NCBI GenBank assembly: GCA_044892505.1
Contig: CM097882.1
Coordinates: 167,958,001-168,022,000, forward strand
Reading direction: 5' to 3'
Length of the DNA: 64,000 nt
DNA from: Schmidtea nova
Lineage: Eukaryota
In this document: positions 13,118 to 48,717 of the stretch, piece by piece
Position numbering within the stretch: the first letter of the stretch is position 1
Layout: each line of letters opens with the position of its first letter
Position numbers and translations under genes: made by a program
The notes under the pieces: model-generated
Seen by the model: the letters and a program-made list of their open reading frames with translations, nothing else
What the model was told of the DNA's origin: nothing
Database searches by the model: none

Positions 13118-16100
13118 CAGCGGCGTATTTACCTGTAGGCAGATTAGGCATTTGCCTAGGGCCTCGGATTTATAAGGGCCTCCAAAATAAAAAAAAAATT
13201 ATAATTTTTTTTTAAAAAAAAAACAATAGCCGTAGCATTTTACATTTTAAACTTTAACAGTTTTAAAATTTTCAGAGTTCAAAACCTTTTGGGGCCTCAA
13301 ATTCAATTTACAAAATAAAATTAGTAGGCCTTTACAAAATAAAATATATGATATACAAAATATTGCTTGAATGTTGCTTTTTTCCTTTTTGAATATGTTC
13401 AAATTCTTTTACTTATAAGAATTTATAAGAAAAAATAACAAATAGGATAAAAGCAACATCCAAGCAAGGTTTGAATTTTTATATTTTGAATATAATATAT
13501 TTTATTTTGTAAAGGCCTACTAATTTTATTTTATAAATTGAATTTGAGGCCCCACGAATAGGTTTTAAACTCTGAAAAATTAAAAAGAAAAATAATAAAA
13601 TTATTTTTAAAAAAAAAACAATAGTCGTAGCATTTCATATGCAATTTCATTTCATTTATTGTTTGAATTTTGTTACGTTAACATCAAATTTTCGTTGCAT
13701 GATTTTGAATATTGAAAATAAATATTTGTACGTATTGATTATTAGCATAATTTTGATTTTAGATTGATATTTTCCGAATAACCAACCGTTTTTTTTAAAA
13801 CTACCAAAACCAATCGTTGTTGCTTCTTGCTTTCGTCATTTAATATTTCATAATTCACTCGACAATTATTCCATTTTTTTTTAAAAAAAAATATTGACAA
13901 ATATACGTTAAAATGAAAAAAACTTTCGAGTCTGGCGCACAAAAACGATTGCGAAAAAAAATTCAATTGAAGGAAAACGAAAAGCAAAGAAACTCCCTTG
14001 CTAAATTTATGTCTTTTGATAAAAATGTTCCATCTACCAGTACTGCGGCTGCAGATAAAACTGTTTCACTACCAGTAATAGCTGATAGCGATGTTAATCT
14101 TTCGATAAGCAGTCTTTGTGCAGAAGTAGGTGCAAGTGATAATTGCGTTGCCACTACCAATGACATTGAGGTTGAAATTGAGAGTGAAGTAGTAAGTACA
14201 AATACTTATCCTATCTTTACTGACATTGGTTTATGGCCAAAAATAATTACTAATGATGTGATTGAACATTGTATCTGTACAAAACCCAAAAATGTGGGAG
14301 ATTTCGAGTCTTCTAAAAAATGTTATAAAGATAACAATGATCAACAAATATGCCGACAATTAAATGATGTACATTTTTATACGACTAAAATAAACGGAGT
14401 CCAAGAGCTGATTTATTCTGAAACAACGAAATCTGTTTATTGCTTTGCTTGTAAACTATTTAGTAAAAAATCTAATGTTCTAGTTTCAGGATATTCAGAT
14501 TGGAAAAATATTGTAGACGTTTTGAAAAGACATGATGAGTCGAAAGAACATAAAAGTTGTATGTGTGCTTATGTTCGTCGTGCTAAAATAAGTGGTCACG
14601 TTGATTCCAAACTTTTACAGGTAATAGAAAAAGAGTCAATTTATTGGCGAGAGGTATTAAAACGAGTCGTTCCTACAGTTAAACTTTTGGGAAGTTTGGG
14701 TTTAGGGTTCAGAGGACATGATAATTCTTCCAAAGGCAATTTTTTCAGCTGTATTGAATATTTGGCTGAATTTGATGACTTCTTAAAGGTTCACTTAGAA
14801 AAATACAGTAATTGCCGAAGTGGGCATGTTAATTATTTATCTAAAAGCACGTGTGATGAATTTATAGAACTTATGGGCAAAACCGTACAAAAATCCATTG
14901 TTGATGAAATAAACCAAACTAACTATTTTGCTCTTATAGTTGATTCCACGCCTGATGCAAGCCATACTGACCAGTTAACTATTATTATCAGGTACGTAGA
15001 TCTGGATCAAAAAATTCAAGAAAGGTTCATATGTTTTATTTCGATTGAACATCATGATGCAACATATTTAGAAAAAACGATTTTGTCCGCCTTGTCAGAA
15101 TTAGGGTTGAACATTAATAATTGCCGGGGACAAACGTATGATAATGCTGCGAACATGTCAGGCATTTATAACGGTCTCCAAGCCAAAATTAAATGTTACA
15201 GCAAAAATGCTGAATTTGTACCTTGCGCAGGACATTCTTTAAATGTAGTTGGAAATACAGCAACAGAATGTTCTTCTAAAGCTATTAGATTCTTTGATTT
15301 TATTCAAAATTTGTTTGTTTTTTTCCCTCTTCGACAAAGAGATGGGATCAGCTAATGAATACTGATCAAAAATTAAGCCATAGTTTAAAACGTATATGCG
15401 ACACTCGATGGTCATCTAGAACTGAAGCTGTATTAACTGTAAGAATGAATTTTTCTTCCATAAAAACTGTTCTTGGTGAAATTTGTATTAACCCATCTGA
15501 AAAACCCATAGCAAAAATTGAGGCGAAAAAATTACATAGCAGTTTTGAAGATTTAAAGACGGCTCTGTTATTGATATTTTGGAATACGCTATTGCAAAGA
15601 ATCAATGCCACCAATAAGTCGTTACAAAGCAAAGAATGTAACTTACAAAAAGGAACATATTTATTGAAATCTTTATCAGAATTCATACTTAGTATTCGAA
15701 CTAATGATGCATATTTGCACCAAATGGAAAAAGAAGCAATCGAATTATCTGGTTGTACAGAATACTCAACAGCAAAAAATCGAAACAGGAAAAGAGAAAT
15801 ACTATTCGATGAAACTTCTGATAACGACACAATTTTATGTGGGAAAGAACTATTCAAAGTTGAAACATTTTACTCAATTTGTGATACTTTAAACTCTGAA
15901 ATAAAAAGAAGGTCTGTAGTTTATGACAAGGTATTAGAAAAGTTTCTAATATTTGTTGATTTAGATTTGCCTGAAGAAAAATTTGCTCAGTGTGTATCAA
16001 ATTTAGCTGAACACTATAAAGATGACATAAATCAATTAGTATTCAAAGATGAGGTTGAACAGTTCCTTCATTTTGTAAAATTGGAAAAATTATTAACACT

Positions 16101-16506
16101 TCCTGAAATATATGCATCAATTCTGGAAGGTTTATCATCAACATTTCCAAACGTTAAAATAATCCTAAAAATTTTTTTAACAATCTCAATTGCAAATGCG
16201 TCTGGTGAGAGATCATTTAGCATTATTAAGCGGGTCAAAAACTACCTAAGGACGTCACTTGGCCAAAAAAAACTAAATCACTTAGCTATCATGGCAATTG
16301 AAAGCGATCTAGTCAAAAAAATTAACTCCTTAATTGATAATTTTGCAAATAATAAATCACAAAAAAAAATTATAAATGGGCTTTCTTTATTCAAAATTTA
16401 GAAACAAAGCCATGAAAAAAAAATATTTATTATTTAAAAAAAATCTTAGAGGGGCCACAATAATTGATTTTTGCCTAGGGCCTCAATTTGTTAAAATCCG
16501 CCTCTG
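13118..16506 (+). mobile_element. hAT transposon (ZMYM1/DUF4371-type transposase)
   Basis: 13-bp imperfect TIR CAGCGGCGTATTT / CAGAGGCGGATTT; exact 8-bp TSD CCTCCATG (13110-13117 and 16507-16514); TTTGCCTAGGGCCTC subterminal motif at both ends. Confidence 0.93.
13913..16401 (+). pseudogene. hAT transposase with a single 1-nt frameshift at the T7 run (about 15318-15324)
   Basis: TTF-type Zn finger (VYCFACKLF), FRGHD, DSTPD, QTYDNAANM, CAGH, TRW, ERSFS dimerisation motif. One extra T gives a continuous FFPSSTKRW reading. Confidence 0.9.
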
Positions 16507-29131: not shown

Positions 29132-30094
29132 TTTGCAATGTACCAATATTTGCAGAAAGAAAATTATGCAAATTTATAATAAATTTTTTGTGGGAAAATT
29201 ATTTAATTACGGCAATGAATTAGTGATTGTACGTGACATTTCATTTGATAGTTTTTTTAAATTTTAATAAATATTTATCACAGTTAGAGGTTTTTAAAAT
29301 TTTATCTGCTTTTTATATTTTTATCAGATCTTATATTTGGTGCCTTTGTTGCCCTCGTTATCCAGTTTCCGATACCAATACTATATATCTCTTATTATCT
29401 TTATTATAACTGAATTACGGCAGATTTGCAGACTAATAGAACTTAGAACTATTCAAATTAAATTATCAGTAAAAATTATTACTTTATTATTTCAATATAC
29501 TTTATCTTTAAATCTTTAAATCTTTAAGACTATATATCAATATTTTGTTTTATCCTTTAATAGACTTGAAGGTACCCACAAACTTGTATGGGAAATTTTG
29601 ATGTGAACGGTATCTGCAAATTTATAAAGATATTAATATGCAATATTTATATAACAAACAGTTGGTGATAGTTTTGCAACAATAAAGTTTTGTGTTATTG
29701 GGTTGTTGGTGAAATGTAAGTTAACAATCAAATCTCTGACTCCAAAGAGTGCTTTATTTGTTCCACAAAATAACAATTCTCAGACAAATAAACATATATT
29801 GATTATCACAGTTGATCACACGAATTATAACAACACGATCGATTCAACACGCAAGTAGGCAATTATACGAAGTTTATTACAACACTTCGTGAGGAATAGC
29901 TGCACGTGTATAATACCCAAATACTCTAATAATCACTAGCCTCTGATTTGAATCAACAATTGGGTAAATTAGTTTTGATATTCCTTGTTCTTTGAGTTGA
30001 CTTTATTAACTACACTCTTCACACTATATCAATTTATAAAATGTTTCACCAACATGATGAATGTCTATGTGTAATAACCTTTTCTCTTGCAAGA

Positions 30095-31776
30095 TTTAAC
30101 AAGATTAAAAATGAAGTTTACGGGCCACCAGTAATAAGTTTAGGTGAGCTTGAAAATTGGCTTCAATCATCATCTTCTATACCAGAGTTAGAAGATGAAG
30201 CCTTTGTAGTCAATTATAAAATAACTTATGCCGATGAATATGAGTGTGAAGAGAGTAATGAAGAAAGCGATGAAGATGAAGAAAACCACGGCTCTAAATT
30301 TAGATTTTTTATAAGTACAATAAGATTACTTAAGCTAGCCTCAGCATCAACAATTTTAAATGCTGATGCAACTTATAAACTTGTTTGGCAGGGCTATCCA
30401 ATTTTAATCATTGGTACAACCGATTTAGATAGGCATTTTCATTCGTTTGGCCAAGGTATATGTACCAATGAAAAAACTGCTGATTTTAATTTTATTTTTT
30501 CAAGTATCTATATTGGCTTGAAAAAAATAAATGCATCATTATTCAATCCTCGTGTATTGATTTCTGATGCTTCTAACGCTATACGTAAAGCTTATTCACA
30601 AATTTTTAATAAAAATGAAATTGTGATGTGTTGGGCGCATATGCGTAGAAATTGTGTCAAAAAAATCGAGTCTTTAGTAGCTAAAGAAGATCAAAACGAA
30701 TTAATTGAAGATGTAGATCAACTTCAATTGTCACAAAGCCAAGTCATTTTTGAAAAAGCAAGTTCTCTATTTGTTAAAAAATGGAGTAAAAAATGGAGTA
30801 AAAAAAACGACTGAGTTTTTAGACTATATGAATATGATGTGGCTTACGACACACAATACTTGGTATGAAGGATACATGCCCTTCACGCCAAGTACTAACA
30901 ATAATCTAGAGACAAATAATCGAGTTCTTAAAGACGAAGAAACTATTAGAGAGCGCACGCCATTATCTAGATTTAGCAAACAAGCTTTAGATATTGTTAA
31001 AAAGTGGTCACTAGCATATCCTCGAAATCTGAAGGAGTTTATTACAAAACAATCAATCGACACAGCATTATGGACACAGTCTTATCAATGGGCAAAAGAA
31101 AGCAAAGCAATTCTTTCGGTGCCCCAAGAACAGTCGACAAACTACTATGTTTCAGCTAGTGACGCAACTATAACTCAAGAAGACATTGACAAAGTTGAAA
31201 AAATGCGCTGGACAACATTCGATCAATTTACGAAGCGAGCTTTTACTGTCTGGTGCATTAATTTACCAAACGATAAAGCCAATTGAGCCAACGGTCAGTG
31301 CAATTGTCCAGCATTTTTTTAAAAATTTATTTGCAAGCATGTTGTCGGCATTTCAATCAGACTTAAATATTGCAAAGTACCGGCAGTAGCTAAGAATACT
31401 TCTATTGGAAGTAAACTACCAAGAGGAAGACCAACTAAAGCTAAAAAAGTCTTATTAAAACAATAATTTCAAATATTTTTATTATAGTCTTTGTGAAATA
31501 GTCTTTGTATTTTATGGATTTTTTTATTGTGTCACTTTTTGTTTATTCTTATGAATTTTTCATTGTTTTACTTAGTTTTTGTATTTTTTTACTTATAAAA
31601 ATTAAAAATATTACCTATAATAAAATAATTAAATACCTAATGAATTCTATTTTTTTACTTATATAATTAATATAATACTTATCATTTTATAAATATTTAC
31701 TTAGAAAAAAATACATAAAGGCACTAATAAAATACATAGCGTTTAGTAAAAAATACATAGCGAATAAATAGGAGCC
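30095..31776 (+). mobile_element. MULE/Mutator transposon, 5'-truncated
   Basis: NADATYKL, ISDASNAI, MCWAHM, STNNNLE, SWIM finger CNCPAFFKKFICKH, RGRP tail (ends 31466); frameshift near 30790 and stop at 31284. Putative right end GGAGCC abuts a (TA)n run. Confidence 0.85.
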
Positions 31777-31994: not shown

Positions 31995-32395
31995 CTTACA
32001 TTTCGCATTAGATGAACTAATTTTGTTTAATAGCGTTCTTTTGTCACTAAACAACACATCTAATTGACAATACCTGCCACATACTCATTCAGTAAGCAAC
32101 TGGAAGATATCATGTTTCGACATGTAGCTTCTCAGAAACTTCAATCTTTAGACGCTATTTTTAATACATTTGTTGTGGCTTTGGATGGGTTAAAACAAAA
32201 AGATAACTAAACGCTCTAGGGATGCCTCCATCCAAGCCTAAACATAAAATGCTTTCACGACACACGACTATTTCCCTGGATAATCGAGTTGTAAATGTGC
32301 AAGGTGTTTGAACAATGATGGGCAGGTGAGCTCTATTGCTAAAACTACTTTCCATTTATGTTCACGGGTCCATTGCTGCCGATAGAAGAATTTAC
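31995..32395 (-). pseudogene. Adenain-like cysteine protease relic (Polinton/Maverick PRO)
   Basis: Degenerate VLAIEL..LPIIVxT..DYPGK* and DIFQLLTE*VCGRYC resemble the IVNTD..PG.HW and Q...S..CG.YC motifs; many stops. Confidence 0.55.
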
Positions 32396-32711
32396 ACTTT
32401 ACTTTCTATTTAATTCATCCGAATTCCTTATCTTTCATTTTAATTTTTCTGCCCCCTTCTTTTCAATATCAACAGATAATTCGAATAATTATAAATTCAT
32501 CCTTACTTTAATGTTCCTATTGTTTGTCATTTATTGAATTGTGTTAGTGCTTTTGGCAGTATAATTTGCATTTAATTAATTTTAATTTGAAAGTTTTTTA
32601 ATAAAAACTTTATTTTAACTACTTTACAATAAAATAAGCACAAAACAAAAATATAATAAAACTAAAATTTTGTACACAAAGAAAAATAGTAACAAATTAT
32701 GTTCGACCATT

Positions 32712-33326
32712 TCATTCGAAATATTTGAGGAAATCTTCGTCAGCTGCCGAAAAATCTGTGTTTAGATCTATCTCTGGAAATTCCTCAGTATGATGTATTA
32801 TTTGCTGCATAATCTGCTTTTTCCATCGGCGTTGCCTTGCACCCATCTTGTTTTTCTTTTTCTTCTTGATCTCGATAGTTGTTGAGGTTTTCTTTACGGT
32901 TTGATTTGCAATTTCATTAACCTGCGATGGTCCTTCTATGTTAGTACTTTTCGTGCATTACGCCTTCTCTTCTGACCAATGCTGATAAGTGATTGGTCGT
33001 ATTAATTGCTTCAATTCGCGATCGATAAACGAAGTGGTGACTGCCTTGAGGCATTTTCTCAATTCGATCCTCGTTGCCTCAAGTTCTGTCCTGTACTCTT
33101 CATTCGATCGCTGAGATTGTTGGGTTTTCATAATTTGCATCTTCATTTTGTCGGGATTGAACCAGCTTTTCTGTAGTTGAGAAATGGTAGCTTCTACTGT
33201 TTGTAATCTCTCGGATTTTCTAATGATTTCCTTCTCAAGGCTGCGAATATATCGCCAAGCCTTGTCTAATTCGCTTTGTAGGTTCATTGAGTTGTTTGTC
33301 ATTTTCTGAAAATCAATGAGTTTCAT
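32712..33326 (-). pseudogene. Orphan coiled-coil ORF (205 codons) with one internal TAA at 32958-32960
   Basis: The frame continues past the stop to ...KKKKKNKMGARQRRWKK...DFSAADEDFLKYFE*; no family recognised. Confidence 0.6.
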
Positions 33327-33455
33327 TAGTTAAAATTTTTGCTGGTTTGAATTATGTTAACAGATTTTGTTTCGTACTTTCCTCGTTGAGTTTTTCTTTA
33401 ACCTTTATATAATAAAACTAAGAAGAGAAATAAAATACATTCTATATTGTCAACA

Positions 33456-33593
33456 CTGTCGCTATGTACAGCGATCAGATAAATTCATTTAGTATTTTAT
33501 TAATTCATGCCTGTGCTATGTACAGCAATCAGGTGGATAATTTACGAATATTTACAGAAAAATAAGTTCTGCTGCCCTATGTACAGGGATCAG
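33456..33593 (-). promoter_or_regulatory. Array of three stem-loops with invariant CTGTACATAG core and covarying stems
   Basis: 33456-33478, 33510-33533, 33572-33593; plus-strand stems cgct/agcg, tgct/agca, ccct/aggg around ATGTAC. Strand assigned from the adjacent ORF. Confidence 0.6.
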
Positions 33594-33718
33594 GATAATA
33601 TATTAATTGTCATTATTTTTGGTTGATTGATGCTAAAAATGCGATCAACTTCGTCTAGTTGATTTCTGTGTGGTAGGTCATCTACCCACCTGAATTCTTG
33701 TATTAGGGTTATTGATTT

Positions 33719-33834
33719 TGCATTCTAACTTGCATTCTAAACGTGTATTCTAAACTTGTATTCTAAACTTGTATTCTAAACTTGTATTCTAAACTTGTAT
33801 TCTAAACTTGTATTCTAAACTTGTATTCTAAAAT
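33719..33834. repeat. 13-bp minisatellite (TGTATTCTAAACT), 8 full units plus one degenerate
   Basis: Direct reading. Confidence 0.95.
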
Positions 33835-34103
33835 TGAACGATGATGCTAGCCACTTTATGCAAACAAACCCCAGATGCACGATCTTGCCAAGGAACACGG
33901 TATTACTCTGAATACTTTACTGATGCATGTTAAGTTTAAATATTAATTTATCATCAAAAACAAAAAATACTGAATGATAAAATTGAAATAAAACTGTCTG
34001 TACTGCTCAGCGATAAATAAAATTCCTACCCTCTTCGTGGCACTTAATACCAGGCAGATGGCCTAACTGTACGAAGTAGTTAAATCTACTCGGCACAGTC
34101 TGC

Positions 34104-34280
34104 CTCCTTCCATCGATTTCACGATGGACAGGAGCCCCCTCAAATAAAATATAAATTCAAAATAGAAAATTTCATTTCGCCTCCCTCCACCGATTACACA
34201 GTGGACAGGAGCGCAAGTAAATCATCATAAAACCAATTCAATACATTTGCCTCCTTCCACCGATTACACAGTGGAAGGAG
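34104..34280. repeat. Array of three GC-rich hairpins CTCC(T/C)TCCA...TGGA(C)AGGAG
   Basis: 34104-34134, 34181-34211, 34251-34280, separated by AT-rich spacers. Confidence 0.75.
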
Positions 34281-34723
34281 CGCAAGACAAATCTCAAAAA
34301 ATTTCATATAAAAATTCATATAAAATTATTTATTTGTTAAATAATGACAAAAGAAATCATGATAACAAAATTACATAAATTAATGAATTCAAATGTTCAT
34401 ACCTTTACTTGAAAAATTTCTGCCTCACAATTTGATCACAAAAACAGATATCAAAATCATCTAAATTGTCTGAATCTGAATCAGCTGATGATCCAACATA
34501 TAATTTTATTAAAAAATAATCAATTTCATTTTTTGTTTAAATTAACTACATTTTTCTTTAATTCTTTTCTTTATTAATTATTTATTTCTATTGCTAACCA
34601 TTCTATGTTGTTTACATATCATTTTCTTATTACTTTTTTACATCTTAATTTTATTTCTTATAATTTTACAATATCATTTATTTCTTTCTATTACTTTTAA
34701 TTCCTTTTAATGGAATTTCTTTC

Positions 34724-34856
34724 AGTAACTATCAGTAATATCTGACATCAAAAATAAACAATTTAACAATTGAAAAACTTAATATTTATTTTTAAAAACA
34801 ACTCCTTCTTGTTGCTTATTTAAACAACTTGTTTTTTTAATAATCATTACATTACT
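34724..34856 (-). repeat. 3' LTR (133 bp, AGT...ACT)
   Basis: Directly follows the PPT; identical to 39146-39277 except one small indel/substitution. Confidence 0.95.
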
Positions 34857-34865
34857 TTCCCCTCC

Positions 34866-37800
34866 TCAACTTTGATGCCATCTCTTCAGCCATTCTATCC
34901 GTCTCGGTCGTCTAGCATCCGGAAATTGTAGCTCGACCTGGTGTTCCGACAAAAATCTAACAATCTTATATGGTCCATCGTATTGTATGTCATTCTTATT
35001 CCTTCTGTGTGGCTCCCGTCGAACCAATACTTCCTCCCCCACTTCAAAAGAACGTTTACCTCTTCGATCTTTTTCTAAAATTCTCATTCTATCTGCCGCT
35101 AGCTTAGCATTCTGAACCACTTTCTCGTCAACTCTTTGGCCTTTGATCTCCGATCCTTGTCCATTGGCATGAAGTGACACTTTCCGTCCATACACAATCT
35201 CAAATGGAGAATATTTAGTTGCGCTTTGGAACGTCGCATTGATGCTGAATTCCACCCTTGGAAGTATCTCGCACCATTCATATCGCCTGTTGTTACTAAG
35301 AATTGAAGTCACCAGTAGATCTCTCATCGTGCGAATTACTCTTTCTACCAATCCATTTGATTGATGTTGATATGGTGCTGAGAATTCTTGACGAATCCCT
35401 AAAACTTCGAATTTCTCTTTCATATATCTGCCTTCAAAATTTTTTCCTTTGTCTGAAAGAATACTTTCTGGCTTTCCATATTTATAAATCCAATTATGAA
35501 GTATAATCCGGAATATCGTCATTTCGTCTTGCTTCTCTGTCGCAGTTAGGCATACTAATTTACTGAACCTATCTATTATGACAATCACATATCTCTTTCC
35601 GGACCTTGTCTTTTCCATGTGTGCTACATCAACTACGATTTGTTCCAGAAACCCGTTACTTCCGCGTGGAATAAAAAGTTCTTTCGTTCTTCCTTGATCT
35701 ATTTTCCTTCTCGCACATATACTACATTCTTTTACAACGTGTCTTACTGTTTCACACATCTTTGGCCAGAAAAAACTATTTTCCATGTAATGAAAGACTT
35801 TTTTTCCCCCCACATGACATAATTCTTCATGAATCTTCTTAACCAGTTGTTTTTGATGGCTCTCTGGAACTGCTACTAAATCATTGGATTCTCTCTCTAC
35901 GGTAATTAAGTCATCGTTGATCTTCAATCTGTCTTTGTGAGCATATAGGAAAGATTTCTTGAAAAAATCTTCTTCCTCATTCAAAAATTCATTGATATAA
36001 TTCCATGCTCCTTGAAACCCTTTGTCCTTCTTTTGTTCTTCCATAATTTTCATCATGGTGCCAGTTTTTTGTATCGAATTAATATATCGTACCCTAGCTC
36101 TCTCCTTCTTCGGCTCTTCGTGTTGTGTTTGACATTGTGCGCACAACATTCCTCCAATTCTCGACAATCCATCGGCATTCCCATGTTCTACTCCTTTCCG
36201 ATACTGGAATTTAAAATTATATTCTGATAAGTTCACCATCCATGTTTGGAATTGTGGACTTATCGCTTTCTTTGTCGTATTCATAAATACCAGCGCCTTG
36301 TGGTCGGTTCTCGCTATGAACTCCTTCCCATATAAGTATTGACGAAAATAAGTAACAAACTCATGTAATGCCAGCAATTCCTTTCTGGTCACACAATACC
36401 CTTTTTCGTGTGCTGTGAGATGTCTCGACCCATACGCAATTACTACTTCTTTACCTTCCTCTGTGATTTGACTCAGAACGGCACCTACCGCTTCAAAACA
36501 AGCATCCGTATCTAAGACAAATACCCTGTCCATCCTAGGATAATCCAGTACAGGTGTTTTCATCAGGGCTTCTTTTAAATTCTCGAAACTTGTTTCACAT
36601 TTTTGAGACCATTGTAAGGTCTTATCACACCCCGTTGTTGCTGCATATAGTGGTGCTGCCAAACGCGCATAATCTTTGACAAATCTTCGATAGTAATTCG
36701 TCAGTCCCAAAAATGAGCGCAGTTGTTTCGCACATTTTGGTCTTGTAGCCTCCCTAATCACCCGTATCTTTTCTTCGTTAGTTTGAATCCCGAACTCACT
36801 CACGGTATGCCCTAAAAATATTAACTTATCTTTGTAGATCTTACATTTCTCCGAATTTATCTTCACGCCAGTACTTCTGATTCTTTCAAAAACTTCTTTT
36901 AGCCGGCTGTCATGTTCCGATTTATCCTTCCCGTATATGAGGATGTCATCTAAATATACCACCGCCCCATTAAAAAGAATACCTTCTAACATAGTGTTCA
37001 TGAATCTCTGAAATGTAGCTGGAGCTGTTGTCAATCCGAACGGTAATCGCTCAAAACAAAACTGCCCGCTTTTCGTACTAAACGCGGTTTTCTCCTGTGA
37101 CTCTGCTGCCAATGCCACTTGATAATATGCTTGACCCAGATCCAATGATGAGAAAAACTTCGCTCCGGCCAAGCAATCCAGTAGCTGTGTGATATTCGGC
37201 ATCGGAAAAGATTCCTTCTCTGTCAGACTATTTAGACTCCGATAATCCGCACACATTCTGATCGATCCGTCTTTCTTTCCTACTATGACTAATGGTGCGT
37301 TCCATGGGCTCTGACATCGCCTGATCACCCTTGCTTCTACTAACTTTTGTATTAAGTCATCTACCTTCCGTTCCAGATGCATCGGTTGTCGTCGTGGATA
37401 TTGCATCACAGGATTACCAGTCGTTTTAATTTTATGTACTACCGTCGTGGTATATCCTAAATCGAATTTGGTTGCCATAAATATTGAAGCAAAATCCGTG
37501 ATTAATTTCTCGAGCTCGATATTTTCCTCTTTCAGCAAGTCTGTTTTCGCTTTTAATAGTCGGTCTTTGTCGTTGATGTTTGTCTTGATCTCATTGTCTT
37601 CAATACTTTTCACTTCCACCAGTTGTATGCCGAACGCTTTCATTGTATCTACTCCACCAATAAATCCTGGTCGAATATCCCTCATAACAACAATACATAT
37701 GTTCCTCTGTTTTTGGTTCCATTTCGCCTCTACCATAGTACGTCCCAGTGGTCTTTTACTTCCTGGAAAAACGCCACAAATCGTCAAATCGCTTGCATCT

Positions 37801-37940
37801 AACCTCGGTTTTCCGATGTTTATCCATGTTTCTTCATTCATCACTGATATTGATGCCCCCGAATCCCATAACATTTCTACTTCAACCGTATTAATAACCA
37901 TCTTACTCCATTCTCTTCCATCGCTCGTCTGATACTTCAT
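34866..37940 (-). CDS. Gypsy Pol (PR-RT-RNase H-integrase); frame open upstream into gag (-1)
   Basis: DSGAS, YLDD, DTDA/RKELLAL/TDHKAL, HHCC, D-D-E and GPY motifs; no stops. Confidence 0.96.
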   Translation of the reverse strand: MKYQTSDGREWSKMVINTVEVEMLWDSGASISVMNEETWINIGKPRLDASDLTICGVFPGSKRPLGRTMVEAKWNQKQRNICIVVMRDIRPGFIGGVDTMKAFGIQLVEVKSIEDNEIKTNINDKDRLLKAKTDLLKEENIELEKLITDFASIFMATKFDLGYTTTVVHKIKTTGNPVMQYPRRQPMHLERKVDDLIQKLVEARVIRRCQSPWNAPLVIVGKKDGSIRMCADYRSLNSLTEKESFPMPNITQLLDCLAGAKFFSSLDLGQAYYQVALAAESQEKTAFSTKSGQFCFERLPFGLTTAPATFQRFMNTMLEGILFNGAVVYLDDILIYGKDKSEHDSRLKEVFERIRSTGVKINSEKCKIYKDKLIFLGHTVSEFGIQTNEEKIRVIREATRPKCAKQLRSFLGLTNYYRRFVKDYARLAAPLYAATTGCDKTLQWSQKCETSFENLKEALMKTPVLDYPRMDRVFVLDTDACFEAVGAVLSQITEEGKEVVIAYGSRHLTAHEKGYCVTRKELLALHEFVTYFRQYLYGKEFIARTDHKALVFMNTTKKAISPQFQTWMVNLSEYNFKFQYRKGVEHGNADGLSRIGGMLCAQCQTQHEEPKKERARVRYINSIQKTGTMMKIMEEQKKDKGFQGAWNYINEFLNEEEDFFKKSFLYAHKDRLKINDDLITVERESNDLVAVPESHQKQLVKKIHEELCHVGGKKVFHYMENSFFWPKMCETVRHVVKECSICARRKIDQGRTKELFIPRGSNGFLEQIVVDVAHMEKTRSGKRYVIVIIDRFSKLVCLTATEKQDEMTIFRIILHNWIYKYGKPESILSDKGKNFEGRYMKEKFEVLGIRQEFSAPYQHQSNGLVERVIRTMRDLLVTSILSNNRRYEWCEILPRVEFSINATFQSATKYSPFEIVYGRKVSLHANGQGSEIKGQRVDEKVVQNAKLAADRMRILEKDRRGKRSFEVGEEVLVRREPHRRNKNDIQYDGPYKIVRFLSEHQVELQFPDARRPRRIEWLKRWHQS

Positions 37941-37972
37941 GCTTCTTCTCCTGTCATTTCGATTTTCTTCAT

Positions 37973-39169
37973 TTATATCTGCGATCCCATTGACGAAATG
38001 TGTGCGATGGGATCGTTGGCATTTTTTCTTACTTCTACTTCATGTGGTTGACACTCACTTCCGTATTCATCTCTAAAATCATAACTATTTATCTGCTGAT
38101 CCTCCATTTCTTCGTGTATACATGATATCTTCTTGACGTTGGTGTTGTAACCTCGTCGTTCATTCAGAAGGTTACAATTTCTAAAATTGTGTCCGTTCTT
38201 CCCGCAAATCAAACATTTATCCTTTAAAGGGCATTCAAAACGCCTATGTCCTTCTTCTCCGCAACAAAAACATTGACCTGATTTGAGTTCGCATGGCCTT
38301 GGTTCTGGTAACCCCATATGTCTGTTGTATAACCGTTTGGCTATATGTTTCAGAGATACAGTTGGCATCTTCTTTTCACCCGTCTGCTGTCCTTTCCATC
38401 TTTGGGACTCTGGTTGTTCATATCTTCCGTATTCCACTTTGTTTTCGAAACTTCTGGGTTCTTTCCGTATATATGGTCTTTGCTTTCCTCTCTCCAATTC
38501 CTCTCGATTTCTTAGACCCTCTTTGAATTTTTCCGCATATGACATTGGTTTCACTGCCAAAATTTCTTCAGATCTGTCCTCTGTTTTCTCATAAATTTTT
38601 GCTAAATCATTTCTCTCTTTGTGATCCATCTTAGGTTTCGTCGTAAGTACCTCTTTTAATCTTTTATCTCTCACTCTGTGCATAATAATCTCACTTACTA
38701 TTTCTTCCTTTGACAATCCTGAATATAAAACTTCTTCCACGATTTTGAGAACTCGAATCTCGAAAGTAGCAAAACGTTCGTTGTCATCTTGTCTGATAGT
38801 TGAAAGATCCTTGATTTTATCTAATATTGACTTTTTTATAGTGAATGTTTCTATAAACCATTCTCTAGCATCATCCTCTGATGTGTCTTCGGTTTTGAAA
38901 TTCTTCCACAAGATTGACGCTTCTTCCGATAACAACAAATCAAAAGCTTCCGTCCGTTTTAGATCATTTCTTATAATCCACTCATCGATCGCTTTAATCC
39001 ATTTTTCTGCTTCCTTAGCGCATCTTCCATCGTATCTACGAATTTCAACGTCTAAGATTTCTTGAGCCTTCTTTGGTAAAACATCTCTTGCTGATTTCTT
39101 ATCTTGGCTACGTGTTTTAACTGCGTTAATTTCGGCGTGGTCGCCAGTAACTATCTTAATATCTGACAT
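37973..39169 (-). CDS. Gypsy Gag, 398 aa, two CCHC knuckles
   Basis: CFCCGEEGHRRFEC and CLICGKNGHNFRNC; the only early in-frame ATG lies inside the 5' LTR. Confidence 0.9.
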   Translation of the reverse strand: MSDIKIVTGDHAEINAVKTRSQDKKSARDVLPKKAQEILDVEIRRYDGRCAKEAEKWIKAIDEWIIRNDLKRTEAFDLLLSEEASILWKNFKTEDTSEDDAREWFIETFTIKKSILDKIKDLSTIRQDDNERFATFEIRVLKIVEEVLYSGLSKEEIVSEIIMHRVRDKRLKEVLTTKPKMDHKERNDLAKIYEKTEDRSEEILAVKPMSYAEKFKEGLRNREELERGKQRPYIRKEPRSFENKVEYGRYEQPESQRWKGQQTGEKKMPTVSLKHIAKRLYNRHMGLPEPRPCELKSGQCFCCGEEGHRRFECPLKDKCLICGKNGHNFRNCNLLNERRGYNTNVKKISCIHEEMEDQQINSYDFRDEYGSECQPHEVEVRKNANDPIAHISSMGSQI

Positions 39170-39277
39170 CAAAAATAAACAATTTAACAATTGAAAAACT
39201 TAATATTTATTTTTAAAAACAACTCCTTCTTGTTGCTTATTTAAACAACTTGTTTTTTTAATAATCATTACATTACT
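39146..39277 (-). repeat. 5' LTR (132 bp)
   Basis: Ends AGTTACT, overlapping the first T of the PBS. Confidence 0.95.
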
Positions 39278-39906
39278 CTTTCAAATACCTTAATTTGCTT
39301 TATCCATTTTTATTTTCTTATTATTATTGTTTATATATTTAAATGTTGGTCAAATGGTGGACCCAACACATTTTATTAATAAAATCTGATTTTTATAAGC
39401 TCTTTCGATTGACTGCAATTAAATTATGACACTGAAAAAATCTTAGCTTACTTAGTAGATAAACTTTATTCGTGAAAAAAATTGCGTCCCATAAAATAGA
39501 ACATTGGCCATTTATGAGTTAACTGGTTTCATTTTTAGTGAATCTTTAATTTTGTTTGATTTCTGATAAATGAAAAGATTTTGCATTTAAGATGATGGCT
39601 AATTTTGTTCTCTTAATTATACTGGTCATTATCTGTATGCAACCGATCAGATTCGTTTATTTGTATTACACATGACATGCGTGTATTGTACATGATATGT
39701 GTTGTACACGTGTTGAAAGTTCATGACTCATATGATTAATTTTATGCATATATATTGCATCTCGATAGCAAACTATTTTTAAATACAGGTAAAAAAGTTG
39801 TATTCATTTAAATTACAGGTCAACAAATTACTAGGTTGATTACTTACCATCAATAAAATCTACTTAATAACTATTTATATTAATTAATAACTACTCAAAA
39901 ATTATT

Positions 39907-40128
39907 ATCAATAATTCTCATAATGACTATAGATCAAATTTTTTTTTATAAACAATAACACAATATTTCGGCACAGCCTTTATCAAGTGTGTATTAAATA
40001 CACACTTGATAAAGGCAGTGCCGAAATATTGTGTTATTGTTTATAAAAAAAATTTGATCTATAGTCATTATGAGAATTATTGATAATAATAATAAAAAAA
40101 GATCAAAGGTGAAAAAAGATAATTATGA
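39907..40128 (+). mobile_element. Penelope-like pLTR palindrome plus tail with a 13-15-bp TSD
   Basis: Palindrome 39901-40090 centred on 39996 (one mismatch, one homopolymer indel); tail GATCAAAGGTGAAAAAAGATAATTATGA; TACTCAAAAATTATT at 39892-39906 and 40129-40143. Confidence 0.75.
40002..40034 (+). ncRNA. Minimal hammerhead-like motif (U3-A8 variant)
   Basis: ACAC-UUGAUAA-A-GGC(AGU)GCC-GAA-AUAU-U-GUGU. Confidence 0.65.
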
Positions 40129-42812: not shown

Positions 42813-43990
42813 ATGGCAACCAACCAACTAAACCAAATAAATGTTACCCAAACACCCATTGACAATGAAAATGCACAATCCCAACACCAAAACAACAACT
42901 ACTATTACAACCCCGAAAACACACACACCATAAACTCTGTAATTAACCCGAAACCAACCTACCAAACTACTTCACTGATGAAAATGGCACTCCACAAAAA
43001 TGGCTGGAATTTGCTAAATTAACATCTACATTGTCTGGAATACAATCCACAAAACCCCTATGCTCCAATATCATAGCCGCACTCCCCAGTAACAAACTAA
43101 ATGAAATCACGGATCAGGTTGAAGAAATTTCTAAGGATGACGACCCCTTTAACAAACTGTGTAACATCCTTACGAATAAAAATAATATAAACAAAAGACA
43201 AATGCTAGAGTCATGCCTCAATAACACGCAACTAAGCGACAACAAACCAACAGATTTTCTCCGACAACTCAAGCAAAAATTGGAATACCTCCAACCTAAC
43301 ATCACAAATTCAGGCTCCAACGAATTGGTGAAAGAATTTTTCATGCGAGCAATGTCACCAGAAATCAGGAGGATTCTGGCAGCCAGCAACAACGCTGATG
43401 TTGAAACGCTTGCCGACATAGCGGATAAAATTAACGAGGAAATTTATCCGACTATATGCAGCACCCAAAACCACAACAAAAATAAAACTAACTACAATAA
43501 TCTACCAATCAACAAATACAACGAAACAAACGACAACATGAACAAACTATTAAACACACTAATCGGCAAATTCGACGAAATAATTGTCGAAAACAAACAA
43601 ATTAAAACAGAACTAGCCGAAATAAAAGAACGATGTAATAAACAAAACTTTAACTCAACACAATCATACAATAATTACAACAGATACAACCACAACAGAG
43701 ACCAAACATCCGACGGTCAAAACAAACGATTCTACAACCAACCCTCAGAATATAATAGACAAAACTACAGCCGGAATCAATCACCAAACAACAATTACAA
43801 AAACCGGTTGAACTCCCCAAATCGAGGCAACAATTACAGAAACAAAAGTCCTGAAAGAGATCCAAGGAATAATTATATAAACAAAAACCTCTGCTATTTC
43901 CACAACAAATTCGGTGGAAAAGCCTTTAAATGCACACAACCCTGCGAATTCAATAAAACAGAGCAGGGAAACCAATTAGGTCACCAATGA
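42813..43990 (+). pseudogene. Gypsy gag (frameshift near 42950)
   Basis: KPTDFLRQL, LADIADKI and CYFHNKFGGKAFKCTQPC motifs. Confidence 0.85.
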
Positions 43991-45918
43991 TAGCACCCAC
44001 ATCAGGTGACAAAAACAACACATTTTGGGAGCACAGCAATAACATAGACTTTTTAATAGACACCGGCTCGGTGATTTCATTACTGCCCCATTTTATGTAT
44101 AAAAATGCCAACAAACCAGAAAAACCATTAACAGCAGCTAACGGCACAAACATAAAAACTTTCGGGCAACAACCAATTAATTTAACCATAAACAAAAAAA
44201 TTACAACTGGACATTCACCATAGATGAGGTCCAACAAGCAATAATAGGAGCAGACTTCCTAACAAATTACGACCTCCTAGTTGACTGCAAAAACAAACAA
44301 ATAACAGAAAATACTAATGCTACAACTCCACAACGCAACACGAGCAGTGGACAAAGACCAAAGATAGACATCGGCGTCATTACGACAAACATATAAAACA
44401 AACCAAACTTGAACAAAAATATACCAGAAATCGACAAAATTCTGGAACGATTCAAAGAATTAACGGAACCCGTCCAATTCAACGACGATTCTGAAAAAAC
44501 AACTGAACACGCTATAATCACAAACGGAAATCCAGTACACGCAAAAGTAAGACCACTGGATCCCAAAAAGATAGAAATAACAAAAAACATTTTCAGCGAA
44601 CTGTTAGAAAATAACATTGTAAAACATTCCAACTCGGAATGGTCTTCAGCATTGATGCTTAAACAAAAAGCAAATGGTGAATGGAGAGCCTGCGGCGATT
44701 ACAGACTATTAAACAAAATAACAGAACCAGACAGCTACCTATTAACAATAATAAAAGACATCATAAACAGATTAAACGGCGCAAAATATTTTTCAAAAAT
44801 AGATCTACAAAAAGCATACCACTAGATCCCAATTAGAAAAGAGGACGTAAAAAATACAGCAATAACAACGCCAATCGGAATGTTCGAATACAACCGAATG
44901 CCTTTCGGTTTACGAAATGCGGCGGCAACATTCCAGCGATTCATGGATTAAACGATGAAAAACAACAAAAACACAATCGCCTACCTGGATGACATCCTAA
45001 TATCAAGCCCAGACAAAACAACACATCTAAAAGATGTAGAAATAGTGTTCGAAACACTGAACAAAGCAAAACTGAAAATAAACATACAAAAATGCGAATT
45101 CATGAGAAATGAAATAAATTTTCTGGGACACACACTAAACGACAAAGGAACACAGCCGATCGAAAACAAAATAAACAATATAAAAAACTACAAACTACCA
45201 ACTAACACAAGAGAGTTGAGAAGATTTATAGGAATGGTAAACTTCTACAATTCTTACATCCCAAACTGCAGTAAATTACTAGCACAATTAAATGACATTA
45301 TCACAACAAAACGAAATGTCACAATAAACTGGACTCAACAAACAACCGAAGCATTCGAGAAAGCCAAAGAAAGTCTTTCAACGGCAACACTACTCGGATA
45401 TCCAGACCCAGAAATAGAATACCAATTAACTACAGACTGCTCAGGTTTCGCAATGGGTGCAACAATTTTCCAGGAAAACAAATTCGGAAAACAACCACTA
45501 GGTTTCTTCTCTAAAAAGCTAAAGGCACACCAAACAAGATATTCGACTTTTGACAGAGAACTCCTAGCAATACATGATTCAATCAAACACTTCCAACATC
45601 TACTCGAAGGGCGAACTTTCAAAATATTCACCGACCACAAACAGCTAATAAACGCAATTGAAATGAAAAATCCTTCGCCAAGACAGATCAGACAAATCAA
45701 CTTCATTTCACAATTCAATTGTACAATAAACTATGTAGCAGGAAAATCAAACATAGCAGCAGACGCCTTATCCAGAACCGAAAGTGACATAAATTCCTTA
45801 GAATTCGGAGAAATAATTGATTTGGATCAAATCAAACCCAAACAAAACGAAACAATAAGGAAACTGCCTACTAAACACAGCCTGAAACTCCAGGAACTTA
45901 ACGGAGTATGGTACGATG

Positions 45919-48717
45919 TAGAGTTTGCAAAAAAACCGGTTTTTGCAAACCGCGGTTTTCGGTTTTTCAAATTTGAGAAACTGCGGTTTTCGGTTCGGTT
46001 TTCGGTTTCTAAAAAAGTAAAAGGAAATAAAAAGGCATAAGTATATTTATTGCTTTTTAAATAATATATTTCTATTTAAAAGTATAATGTATTTCATACA
46101 AGAAATATATATAATAAAATCATAGCTGCAACATATAAAATAGTAATAATGTTGTTTAATAAATAATATAACAATATTCCTATTCTGTCGACAATGCAGA
46201 TATGAATTTCTAATTCACTTACATTGTTCACAGAGAATATAAAATAACACAGATAATTAATAGTATTTTGTTTATACATTTACTATAATTCAGTAATATT
46301 AGTATATGTATGTAATCGTACATTTGTACAACTAATATAAATAAAAATTAAAATAAATTAAATAGAAAATTTCATTTAGCTGTTATTGGAATACAATAAC
46401 CAAAATTATATTGCATTATTGCAGATTTTTGTTATTTAGTTAATTAAGAACTATTATTTATTCGATAATGTTTCAAAAATACTAAAGAATTAAGCGAATA
46501 ATCACTAAGGCGTGATCTTAATTTTCTACTAAAGTTCGAAGACGTGGAAAATACCCGCTCCGATTCTGTAGACGTTGGGCGTACTGTTAAAATAGCATCG
46601 TATAGTTGTTGAAGAACTGTTGTTCTTTTGCCTGTTTTCTTATATATAGCAAATTCGTCTTTAAGAGAACTAAATGGCTTTGCAGCTACTTCTTTTGCAG
46701 CAGAATTAATAGCAGCATTTATTTCATCTGATAAAGATGTAAATGTAATATTCTGATCAGTTAGAGAATTGGTTTCACACAGAAATTCTTCACAATTATC
46801 GATTTGGTTTGGATACAACCTATTCAATAAACGAGTGCCAAAACTTAAATTTTCTTTTGTGGGTACAACTTGTTGAAGAAGGCATGACAACAAAGAACTC
46901 AATTCCCGATTCTGTCTTGAATTTAAGCGTGTTTTTATATTTTCTCGTAATTGGGTTAAAATTATGTATGTATCTCCCGAACAATTCGATTCGATACCAT
47001 CGAGCTTCTTTAACAGAAATATAATTGCACCTTTTGCTTTTTTTAGATTAGCATCTTTTCTTCCTAATGCAAGTACAGTTAGTTCTAGTGGCTTCAATAT
47101 ACTACACAACAGCTTAACTACATCAAAGTCTATCAATGAAATTAAATTTGTGGCGTTTAAATCATTTAACACTTCCCTTATCGATTCGCTAATTTTTAGA
47201 AATTTTTCTAGCATGGGATGGATAGAGTTCCATCTGTGTTGAACATCTAATTCTAAATAAAGTTCATGACCTAGCTTATCCATAACGTTTTTTTGCAAAA
47301 GATCATTACGGACTGAGGAAAATTTAAAAAAGCGAACGATAGCTCGTACTTTTTTTAGAGTTTCAGCTATTGAAATTCTCTCTCTAACTTCTTCAATGGT
47401 ATTATCTTCGCTCAAATTAAAATCACAACTATCGCTACTAAATTCGTCCTCAGTATAGGATTCTTGATTTTCTTCACTATTTTGATTATCGTCAATTTTG
47501 GAATAAAATGTGTCGCACACTGCAAGGTGAAGACCATGATTCAAGCATAATTGGACTTCTGCTGGACATTCTCTTGCATATTTCACCATGACACTAGCCC
47601 CGTCATTGGACGTTGCAACAATGTCTTGCTCAAACGAAAGATGAAACATTTTTAAATGGTCAGACACAGTTGATAGAATCTTGACTGCGTTACAAGATCC
47701 AAAAATCCTAACTAATCCAAGATTCATTACTTTTCCTTCTTTATTATGGGCATTGATGTTCATATAACGACGCTATCGTGAGCTAACCCATTCGTCCAAA
47801 GTGATACTAAATTTCTCTCCCTTTTGTTTTTCTTGGTCAAAAAAGTTTATATACATTTTTTTCTTTTTCTCATATTCAAAATGAATAAGCGCCATTGTCC
47901 CATTTTCGCTTTTTGAAACCCCTTATCACTAACAGCCTTTCGAATAAAATTAGAATTTGTTATTCCACGAATAGTAAAACCATCTTTTGTGGCCAACTCG
48001 TCCACAATCTCACCAAGTGTTAGCTTTGGAACATAATTGAAAATTGTTTTTTGTATTAACGCACTTGTGCTCGCAACAGCTGTTCTTTTGCAAGAAATTT
48101 TGTGGATATTTCGCATGTGGTTTATCATAGCAGAAGTCGATCCGTTCGAATTAGTTATTTCTACTCCACATTTATTACATTTTGCTTTATTGTCGGATTT
48201 TTTTGATGCTGGTATTTTTATAAAATATTCCCAAACCGTTGATGACATCATTTGAGGGTTTATTTGGCCACTGAAAGTGTTTCAAAAATTTGTTTAGTAA
48301 TACAAATCTACGTATTATCTTAAAAGAATTCTATAAGTACATATTCAAAATTTTAATTACCTACTCACCTATAGTTTTAAAACAATATATAATTATACAA
48401 TCCAATTATACAATCCAAGAAAGTAAATTAATGAATTATAAATTTTAATTTGTAATCAATTTTAAAGTTTTTACAAATTTATTTGACAGCTATAATTTTA
48501 TAGTGGGCATGGATTCCGACTTACTATAAAGTATGAAAAATTGCATACAATCAGGCAAAATTAATATTTTGAGAGAATTTTTTTATTTTACGTAGCTTTA
48601 AATGAAATATTTTTTGAAAACCGAAAACCGCGGTTTCTGCAGACGGTTTCCGGTTACGGTTTTTTGAGACGAAAACCGCGGTTTCGGTTTCCGGTTAACC
48701 GAACCGTGCAAACTCTA
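45919..48717 (-). mobile_element. hAT (Ac/ZBED-like) transposon
   Basis: TIR TAGAGTTTGCA; exact 8-bp TSD GTACGATG (45911-45918 and 48718-48725); clustered AAACCG/CGGTTT subterminal motifs. Confidence 0.95.
46444..48251 (-). pseudogene. BED-finger hAT transposase (one frameshift, one stop)
   Basis: WEYF..CNKC..HMRNIH BED finger; ITLDEW, SNDGA, CLNH, RWNS, SERVFS. Confidence 0.9.

Follow-up and report, generated by a model that had tools for sequence, protein, structure and literature searches.

Host element of the hairpin array

The window, a 64,000-nt stretch of Schmidtea nova contig CM097882.1, carries a 2.64-kb repeat that runs from TGTTG to CAACA within a 4-bp duplication (Table 1). By its structure, this repeat is a solo LTR of a Burro-type Gypsy element, and the minus strand of the window is the sense strand of that element. 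The LTR is interrupted by an unrelated nested Gypsy; in other copies of the repeat, the sequence at window position 39278 is joined directly to that at 34723, and 15 of the 16 other copies with both ends in view also show a 4-bp duplication. The window copy is a relic: it has no CCAAT or TATA boxes, it bears the nested insertion, and its ORF is broken by an in-frame stop at 32960-32958, behind which the frame continues for 81 codons. A link between the hairpins and the neighbouring gag-pol ORFs was rejected, as those ORFs belong to the nested Gypsy with its own LTRs and duplication.

Table 1. Positions of the LTR, its hairpins and its other features in the window
Feature	Position	Strand	Remarks
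Solo LTR of Burro-type element (by structure), main part	32171..34718	-	ends CAACA, then target duplication AATG (32170-32167)
First 91 nt of the same solo LTR	39278..39368	-	starts TGTTG after AATG; severed by nested insertion
Unrelated nested Gypsy	34724..39277	-	gag, pol, 133-bp LTRs, 5-bp target duplication GAAAG
LTR core promoter place	34465..34500	-	window copy without CCAAT-type and TATA boxes
Predicted intron, 1,097 nt	33306..34402	-	donor AAG/GTATGA at 34402, acceptor TTTCAG at 33307-33306; holds both hairpin arrays
Upstream array: three long hairpins running into a three-hairpin structured domain	34022..34282	-	loops UGNAAU
13-nt tandem repeat, 9.2 copies	33718..33836	.	inside predicted intron
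Hairpin unit 1	33572..33593	-	3-bp lower stem, AU bulge, 4-bp upper stem CCCU/AGGG, loop GUACAU
Hairpin unit 2	33510..33533	-	4-bp lower stem, AU bulge, upper stem UGCU/AGCA, loop GUACAU
Hairpin unit 3, terminal type	33456..33478	-	one bulged A, 5-bp upper stem, loop GUACAU
LTR ORF, 196 aa in open copies	32712..33302	-	coiled coil, linker, arginine-rich motif, acidic-hydrophobic tail
Arginine/lysine-rich motif of ORF	32814..32867	-	behind the stop in the window copy
Conserved LTR end island	32171..32400	-	in relatives: perfect splice donor at opening, AATAAA upstream, never downstream

Full-length relatives identify the host. Four of five same-strand candidate pairs are LTR pairs, 99.0-100% identical, that bound elements of 24-29 kb; one close repeat pair turned out to be a duplication. 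The full elements have 4-bp duplications and a primer site, TGGGGGCTC, behind the 5′ LTR, and LTR pairs with a primer site rule out a stand-alone DNA transposon. The encoded proteins comprise a Gag with CCHC knuckles and, in frame between Gag and protease, an env-like fusion domain, followed further on by reverse transcriptase (RT), RNase H, integrase, ankyrin repeats and a MATH/TRAF ORF. The suggestion of a virus-like element, made in an earlier sequence-only reading of the locus, therefore held, since the hairpins lie in the LTR of an env-bearing giant Gypsy element. Size, long LTRs and domain order are those of the planarian giant Gypsy elements Burro and GYPSM1 as given in the cited section of PMC6431247, where neither an ORF nor an intron or RNA element is mentioned for the LTR. 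In the scanned stretches, Pfam at E 0.01 reported no BIR, BCL2-like or dUTPase domain; the Burro domains reported in that section of PMC6431247 came from profile-profile searches. The assignment to the Burro type is by structure and domain order. Two elements have no reverse transcriptase, yet their LTRs are 99.6-100% identical and carry full arrays, as in recently copied non-autonomous forms. Elsewhere the window holds remains of a MULE transposase (29996-31286), two hAT-type transposases (13913-16401 and 46444-48281) and another Gypsy (42947-46040), as well as a near-perfect inverted repeat at 39901-40090 with arms of ~95 bp and a 1-nt centre, which gave only sub-threshold microRNA-like Rfam matches.

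Repeated, ordered and covarying hairpin units

All three minus-strand stem-loop units are present where the sequence-only reading had placed them, spaced 61 and 54 nt apart. The unit pattern occurs three times in the window against 0.05 expected, a number that none of 100 shuffles attained. Two details of the earlier description needed amendment. The 2-nt bulge and 4-bp upper stem hold for units 1 and 2, but unit 3 has a one-A bulge and a 5-bp stem; and while the array does lie 130-267 nt from the first ATG of the ORF (33326), the conserved start is the ATG at 33302. The folding energy of the 171-nt array stretch is at shuffle level (z -0.52) and the single units are modestly stable, with 139, 43 and 23 of 2000 shuffles folding equally well, so that support for the hairpins comes from covariation among relatives and not from folding energy. 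No Rfam family, ribozymes included, matched over the array at E up to 5, and nothing reached gathering score in three LTR loci.

Relatives of the array are abundant in the same genome. The 301-nt array stretch has at least 40 scored relatives out of 1,146 candidates, and a 17-letter unit pattern has 1,450 exact matches genome-wide compared with 0 for its control. From the pattern matches we assembled, skipping overlapping or partner loci, a set of 89 arrays with 239 units, in which each array has one to four units at a median spacing of 55 nt. These arrays are ordered: 79 of the 89 end in a one-A-bulge unit, a type that fills only 2 of the 150 other slots. Across 158 non-anchor units, loop position 4 varies (C in 77, G in 37, U in 32, A in 12), whereas the remaining loop positions deviate in only 5, 2, 3, 3 and 8 units and the bulged A in 3, although unit detection itself leaned on the loop pattern.

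The stems, in turn, change in pairs. In an alignment of terminal units (29 of 31 distinct rows, two false detections having been left out), 94% of cells are paired and six of eight pairs are altered on both sides; the U-A pair of the unit 3 type becomes C-G in 4 of these 29 rows. The covariation score was 0.46, compared with 0.04-0.20 for slid controls and equalled by 0 of 500 shuffles, and the count of two-sided pairs was equalled by 26 of 500, numbers that are not probabilities because the copies are related rather than independent events. An alignment of upstream units, comprising 24 of 52 distinct rows (all 14 recurrent and 10 single ones) and hence biased toward pairing, has 98% of cells paired, four of seven pairs changed on both sides, and U-A as the closing pair in 23 rows. 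Changes of G-U type outnumber those of A-C type by 37 to 16 among the non-anchor units, which points to sense-strand RNA, with the reservation that the changes are not independent. In 11 distant copies, the units are 61-100% identical to those of the window, while the spacers, at 41-69%, are at the shuffle level of 44-57%. The sequence-only reading had pointed to compensating stem changes around a constant loop and bulge, and had suggested looking for covariation in homologues; there the proposal was borne out, with six of eight terminal pairs covarying across lineages whose spacers are unrelated. We conclude that the three hairpins are a real, selected RNA structure, repeated and ordered.

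Other identities for the motif fared less well. A kissing-loop dimer signal is defined by a conserved self-complementary loop, but here the self-complementary GUAC is broken in 81 of 158 units and some arrays lack any GUAC loop. A branch-point mimic, suggested by units beginning with CUGA, is a weak candidate, because 16 of 81 terminal units have C or G instead of the U. Within the literature searched, nothing relevant on the motif or array was found, and supplementary repeat libraries might describe these LTRs.

An array inside a predicted intron

In 73 of 89 copies, a CCAAT-type box and a TATA box are set at a constant distance of 26-27 nt, or 21 nt in one case; they lie ~370 nt into the LTR and 524-1436 nt before the array, and the box pair has 10,505 matches genome-wide compared with 3 for its control. 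Once this place was found, a promoter in the 3′ island was dropped. The same CCAAT-plus-TATA pair also occurs in unrelated repeats with an ORF of 145-167 aa right behind it. In the lineages studied here, the TATA box sits within an inverted repeat with arms similar to the hairpin units, which the unit finder picked up twice; this inverted repeat is a possible origin of the hairpin motif. TAR is a hairpin at the extreme 5′ end of its transcript, and a TAR/Tat arrangement was rejected on the distance between TATA box and array.

Behind the promoter, a donor-like site follows the TATA box by 80-150 nt in 31 of 32 family-A copies, compared with 2 of 96 control windows, and a YAG lies no more than 5 nt before the conserved ORF start in 35 of 38 cases, compared with 574 of 2741 other ATGs. 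From the signals along the LTR, an extended R region is predicted that comprises an exon, an intron and the ORF. The array lies 76-276 nt before the predicted acceptor, inside this predicted intron of ~1.1 kb that ends at the ORF start codon. A second LTR gene (~160-190 aa, no Pfam match) lies between the array and the arginine-rich ORF in lineages other than that of the window; it starts right at a predicted acceptor, a YAG standing directly before its ATG. Four contig sets, their kind unrecorded, contained no predicted-intron joint among those listed, and copy number confounds depth in them, so that they speak neither for nor against expression; a search for intron-less LTR copies with one pattern in family A gave 0 matches.

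If the intron is removed as predicted, the array would be absent from the spliced 5′ leader. This speaks against translational control of the ORF from that leader, translational control having been one example put forward in the sequence-only reading; the alternative it had offered, an iterated operator or packaging site, is a better fit than Pumilio-based translational control.

The predicted intron also holds the upstream array and domain, in which 7 of 39 pairs show two-sided change across 10 family-A rows. A domain of similar layout lies near the predicted intron start in most LTR lineages seen, including those without the hairpin array. At the far end of the LTR, the end island begins with GTAAGT in 56 of 61 cases and is preceded by AATAAA in 55 of 61, AATAAA following it in 0 of 49; its pattern has 1,788 matches in a genome search. 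Suppression of poly(A) use in the 5′ LTR is a retroviral mechanism, and the end-island donor behind AATAAA may serve that function or may join the LTR to downstream exons.

An arginine-rich protein encoded in the LTR

The LTR ORF is under purifying selection, with a median dN/dS of 0.10 (53 of 120 pairs usable) that falls to 0.04 in the basic motif (29 usable pairs) and rises to 0.38 in the linker. The basic motif has 9-11 lysines and arginines in 17 residues in all 16 of 16 proteins. A predicted structure (mean pLDDT 69.7) has two long helices, a loose linker, a helix at residues 155-172 over the basic motif, and an acidic-hydrophobic tail. As a parallel homodimer, residues 1-115 from a single copy modelled with a score of 0.55, the best of three controls scoring 0.00, and the runs agreed in at least 95% of contacts at pLDDT of at least 82. 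Of solved microbial pairs, 21 of 30 attain the score mark used, against 0 of 23 single chains; for eukaryotes the figures are 17 of 29 pairs (7 of 16 in animals) and 0 of 30 single chains, with 1 of 7 among pairs that have no older solved relative. The LTR protein is thus predicted, from these models, to be a coiled-coil dimer with an arginine-rich motif. Leucine-rich export patterns occur in 14 of 16 tails, but shuffled tails match at 54-98% too; the tail could alternatively be an acidic activation domain. Searches found no homologue of the protein outside its own genome (Atlas best 0.88), nothing credible in Pfam, PDB sequences only at E of at least 0.086, and no viral folds at E 0.001.

The array and the protein across lineages

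Among 40 LTR loci chosen by the end island and not by the hairpin, the array was present in 14 of 14 with the arginine-rich ORF and in 0 of 26 without it. These 26 loci belong mostly to a 1.4-kb LTR lineage, and two of them showed one loose unit with another loop. The association is looser in other samples. An abundant sister lineage shares the promoter, the donor and the upstream structured domain, and its open ORF, at 28-35% identity, encodes a similar basic motif; yet no hairpin unit was found in the 1.5 kb upstream of the ORF in 30 of 30 copies, and 3 of 3 full-length elements lacked it over their whole extent. Of 20 loci picked by the promoter, nine had the ORF, and of these only two had the array, which was absent in the other seven. 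No other repeated hairpin was seen in the array's place in the array-less lineages. The promoter-picked sample also contained one broken LTR that lacked the ORF and carried a lone unit, and an unrelated repeat with a unit-like hairpin. Five elements with short LTRs could not be judged because of their decay.

Since array-less sisters keep the ORF and its basic motif, the basic motif cannot need the array, and the array is younger or patchier than the protein. With array and ORF lying within 1.1 kb, linkage alone accounts for their joint presence. The array-bearing ORFs share an N-terminal DKxWR motif that is missing from the others and form one branch, weakly supported (68/71) and with long branches meeting; the shared motif is explained equally well by linkage. 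Gag does not follow the array: that of array-bearing lineage B is nearer to an array-less lineage (73-83%) than to array-bearing lineage A (55-71%), which weakens a packaging reading. RT is 96-99% identical between lineages whose LTRs are unrelated, so that LTR types behave like exchangeable cassettes.

The Pumilio octamer and the closed loop

UGUAHAUA is the Pumilio response element, and the hairpins had been described as built around a canonical copy of it. This stands insofar as most units carry the octamer, with perfect UGUANAUA in 3 of 3 window units and 213 of 239 units of the pattern-picked arrays, and insofar as the free loop position is position 5 of the element. The octamer is not, however, the conserved unit. 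The bases at positions 1 and 8 pair with each other and close the loop, with a predicted pairing probability of ~0.97 and a predicted cost of opening of ~2.3 kcal/mol; they swap jointly, being G-C in 14 of 81 terminal units. In the 14 island-picked arrays, which hold 40 units, the closing pair is U-A in 25, G-C in 9, C-G in 5 and U-G in 1; 20 of the 40 are octamers, and G-C or C-G replaces U1-A8 in 14 of the 20 that are not. Twelve of these 14 arrays nonetheless keep at least one perfect octamer. As the closing pair swaps while the six-base loop persists, selection acts on the closed GUANAU loop together with the bulged A.

Unstructured TGTA(A/T)ATA sites also occur in the elements, clustered on the sense strand in the spacers between the polyprotein stop and the accessory ORFs. 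These 3′ spacers hold 6-9 sites per element compared with 1.7-3.5 expected, exceeding the maximum of 60 simulations in four of seven elements; possible identities for them are Pumilio, UGUA poly(A) and Forkhead sites.

What might read the hairpins

Our preferred reading, which we hold tentatively, is that the hairpins are repeated protein-docking sites on unspliced element RNA, with the arginine-rich protein of the LTR as the foremost candidate to bind them. The array would then likely act as a docking array in the manner of Rev/RRE, letting the protein tell unspliced from spliced RNA. We infer both the binding partner and the outcome of binding, and transcription, splicing and dimer are predicted. 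The LTR promoter would give an RNA with a short first exon, the 1.1-kb hairpin-holding intron and then the ORF. Splicing would remove the hairpins and allow the regulator to be made; unspliced RNA would keep them, and the dimeric regulator would bind its two to four sites. RNA so bound would be held unspliced and handed on to export or packaging, following the logic of Rev/RRE and CERV, and the reader would recognise the bulged A and closed GUANAU loop instead of a linear octamer. Against this docking reading, the upstream structured domain, which occurs in most lineages, is an equally good protein target and may be the true one of the arginine-rich protein. N/nut modules exchange among lambdoid phages, and a more ambitious and more doubtful form of the docking reading would make each LTR a self-contained Rev/RRE-like switch, comprising promoter, hairpin-bearing intron and a dimeric arginine-rich regulator made from spliced RNA only. 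One clade would have a new code, the bulged A and GUANAU loop, read by its own DKxWR version of the protein, and the LTR types would be exchangeable specificity cassettes over a shared core.

That the arginine-rich ORF exists without the array would be explained if another protein reads the hairpins as a mark of the unspliced genome, either Gag nucleocapsid in packaging or a host stem-loop reader tuning RNA transport or the use of the nearby acceptor in splicing. The invariant bulged A and loop As, the ordered repeats and their position behind the first donor and shortly before the acceptor are consistent with such a reader, as are the full arrays of elements lacking reverse transcriptase, since cis-signals are retained in non-autonomous copies. 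Gag relatedness fails to track the array, though, and literature and Rfam searches gave no known host reader for this loop; we regard this explanation as somewhat improbable. The octamers bring in a specific host candidate, a Pumilio/PUF protein that would open the weak stems and either repress the RNA or route it, for instance via the array copy in the 3′ UTR of genome RNA, with the stem gating access. The cited parts of the literature lend this some plausibility: PUM2 barely discriminates position 5 (10.1101/403006), the one position free in most units, and PUM binds a loop-borne element in the 3′ loop of viral HSUR RNA (PMC13692250), as in HSUR1/2, and can disrupt duplex RNA (PMC5785226). 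The low cost of opening, the octamer kept in most island-picked arrays and the octamers clustered in the 3′ spacers would also suit it. The same parts of these sources report that PUM binds single-stranded RNA and that structure lowers its binding in vitro (10.1101/403006, PMC13692250, PMC5785226), whereas here the first and last bases of the element are paired and covary, in repeated bulged hairpins within a predicted intron. A linear reader would preserve neither the bulged A nor the loop of G-C-closed terminal units, which keep it across sub-lineages despite repeated stem changes, and half of the island-picked units are not octamers; the array is moreover predicted to be absent from the ORF mRNA. 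As the main reader, Pumilio is thus unlikely; it is possible as a second reader of the units.

The units might also be DNA operators, imperfect palindromes for a dimeric factor, perhaps the LTR coiled-coil protein, and related to the TATA-box palindrome with its similar arms; the protein does model as a parallel dimer and has basic residues as well as an acidic tail. But the arms are asymmetric, with a bulge on one side, they co-change within the array, and they tolerate sense-strand G-U over A-C, none of which double-stranded recognition requires, leaving operators a slim chance. Retroelement copying can perfect palindromes, and the paired changes could in principle have arisen by template switching at near-palindromes during reverse transcription, the array being a passenger, as whole lineages that thrive without it might suggest. 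Since the units are islands of conservation among unrelated spacers, and since their G-U pairs, bulge and unit order are fixed across lineages where palindrome correction would erase them, we consider this the most improbable of the explanations.

Comparison with known systems

The docking reading draws on Rev/RRE and its kin (Rev, Rex, Rem, Rej and Rec). In the cited part of PMC5568270, Rev-like proteins have an arginine-rich motif and coiled-coil interfaces, and the beta- and deltaretrovirus target lies near or in the LTR. The LTR protein resembles these (PMC5568270, same part) in being small and arginine-rich, with a predicted coiled-coil oligomer and a hydrophobic tail behind the basic motif, and its structured target is predicted only in unspliced RNA, in the LTR region. 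The differences are substantial: the element is a Gypsy and not a retrovirus; gene, intron and candidate target all lie inside the LTR; the target is a row of separate small hairpins; the protein occurs without the array; the searches found no sequence or fold link; and tail export patterns occur at shuffle-like rates. As some defining features fail, we file the array neither as a Pumilio element nor as a member of Rev/RRE.

Another comparison is with Cer1, a Gypsy element of C. elegans whose CERV, a factor made from spliced mRNA, is needed to export unspliced genome RNA (PMC10309623, cited part). Both elements have a primer site starting TGGGGG, but according to the same part of PMC10309623, which names no RNA element for CERV, that protein has 517 aa with a Cys loop and is encoded partly from the gag and partly from the env position. 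The hairpins themselves recall lambda boxB and its N protein, with a helical arginine-rich motif, a GNRNA-type loop start, a free fourth loop base and a U-A closing pair (cited parts of PMC12027372 and PMC12550061); the upper stem of unit 1 is the boxB stem printed in PMC12027372. Here, however, the loop has six bases, there are a bulged A and a lower stem, the closing pair is also G-C or C-G, and the element is eukaryotic, and we treat the likeness as an analogy only.

The array bears on how retroelement RNAs of 25 kb that are rich in splice sites escape splicing and leave the nucleus; for Gypsy elements one such factor, CERV, has been described, and the cited part of PMC10309623 names no RNA target for it. 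The LTRs analysed here offer, all within 2 kb, a covarying motif, a natural compensatory series and a candidate reader, and the sister lineages provide natural negative controls. Because some units are naturally closed by G-C or C-G, recognition of the hairpin can be told apart from recognition of the Pumilio element. Should a host protein be the reader, the array would amount to a new stem-loop code, in a group of animals that serves as a stem-cell model. If instead the self-contained switch is real, a Gypsy element would possess a defined protein-RNA switch for export or splicing, and the Pumilio-like loop could let a host protein compete for the hairpins.
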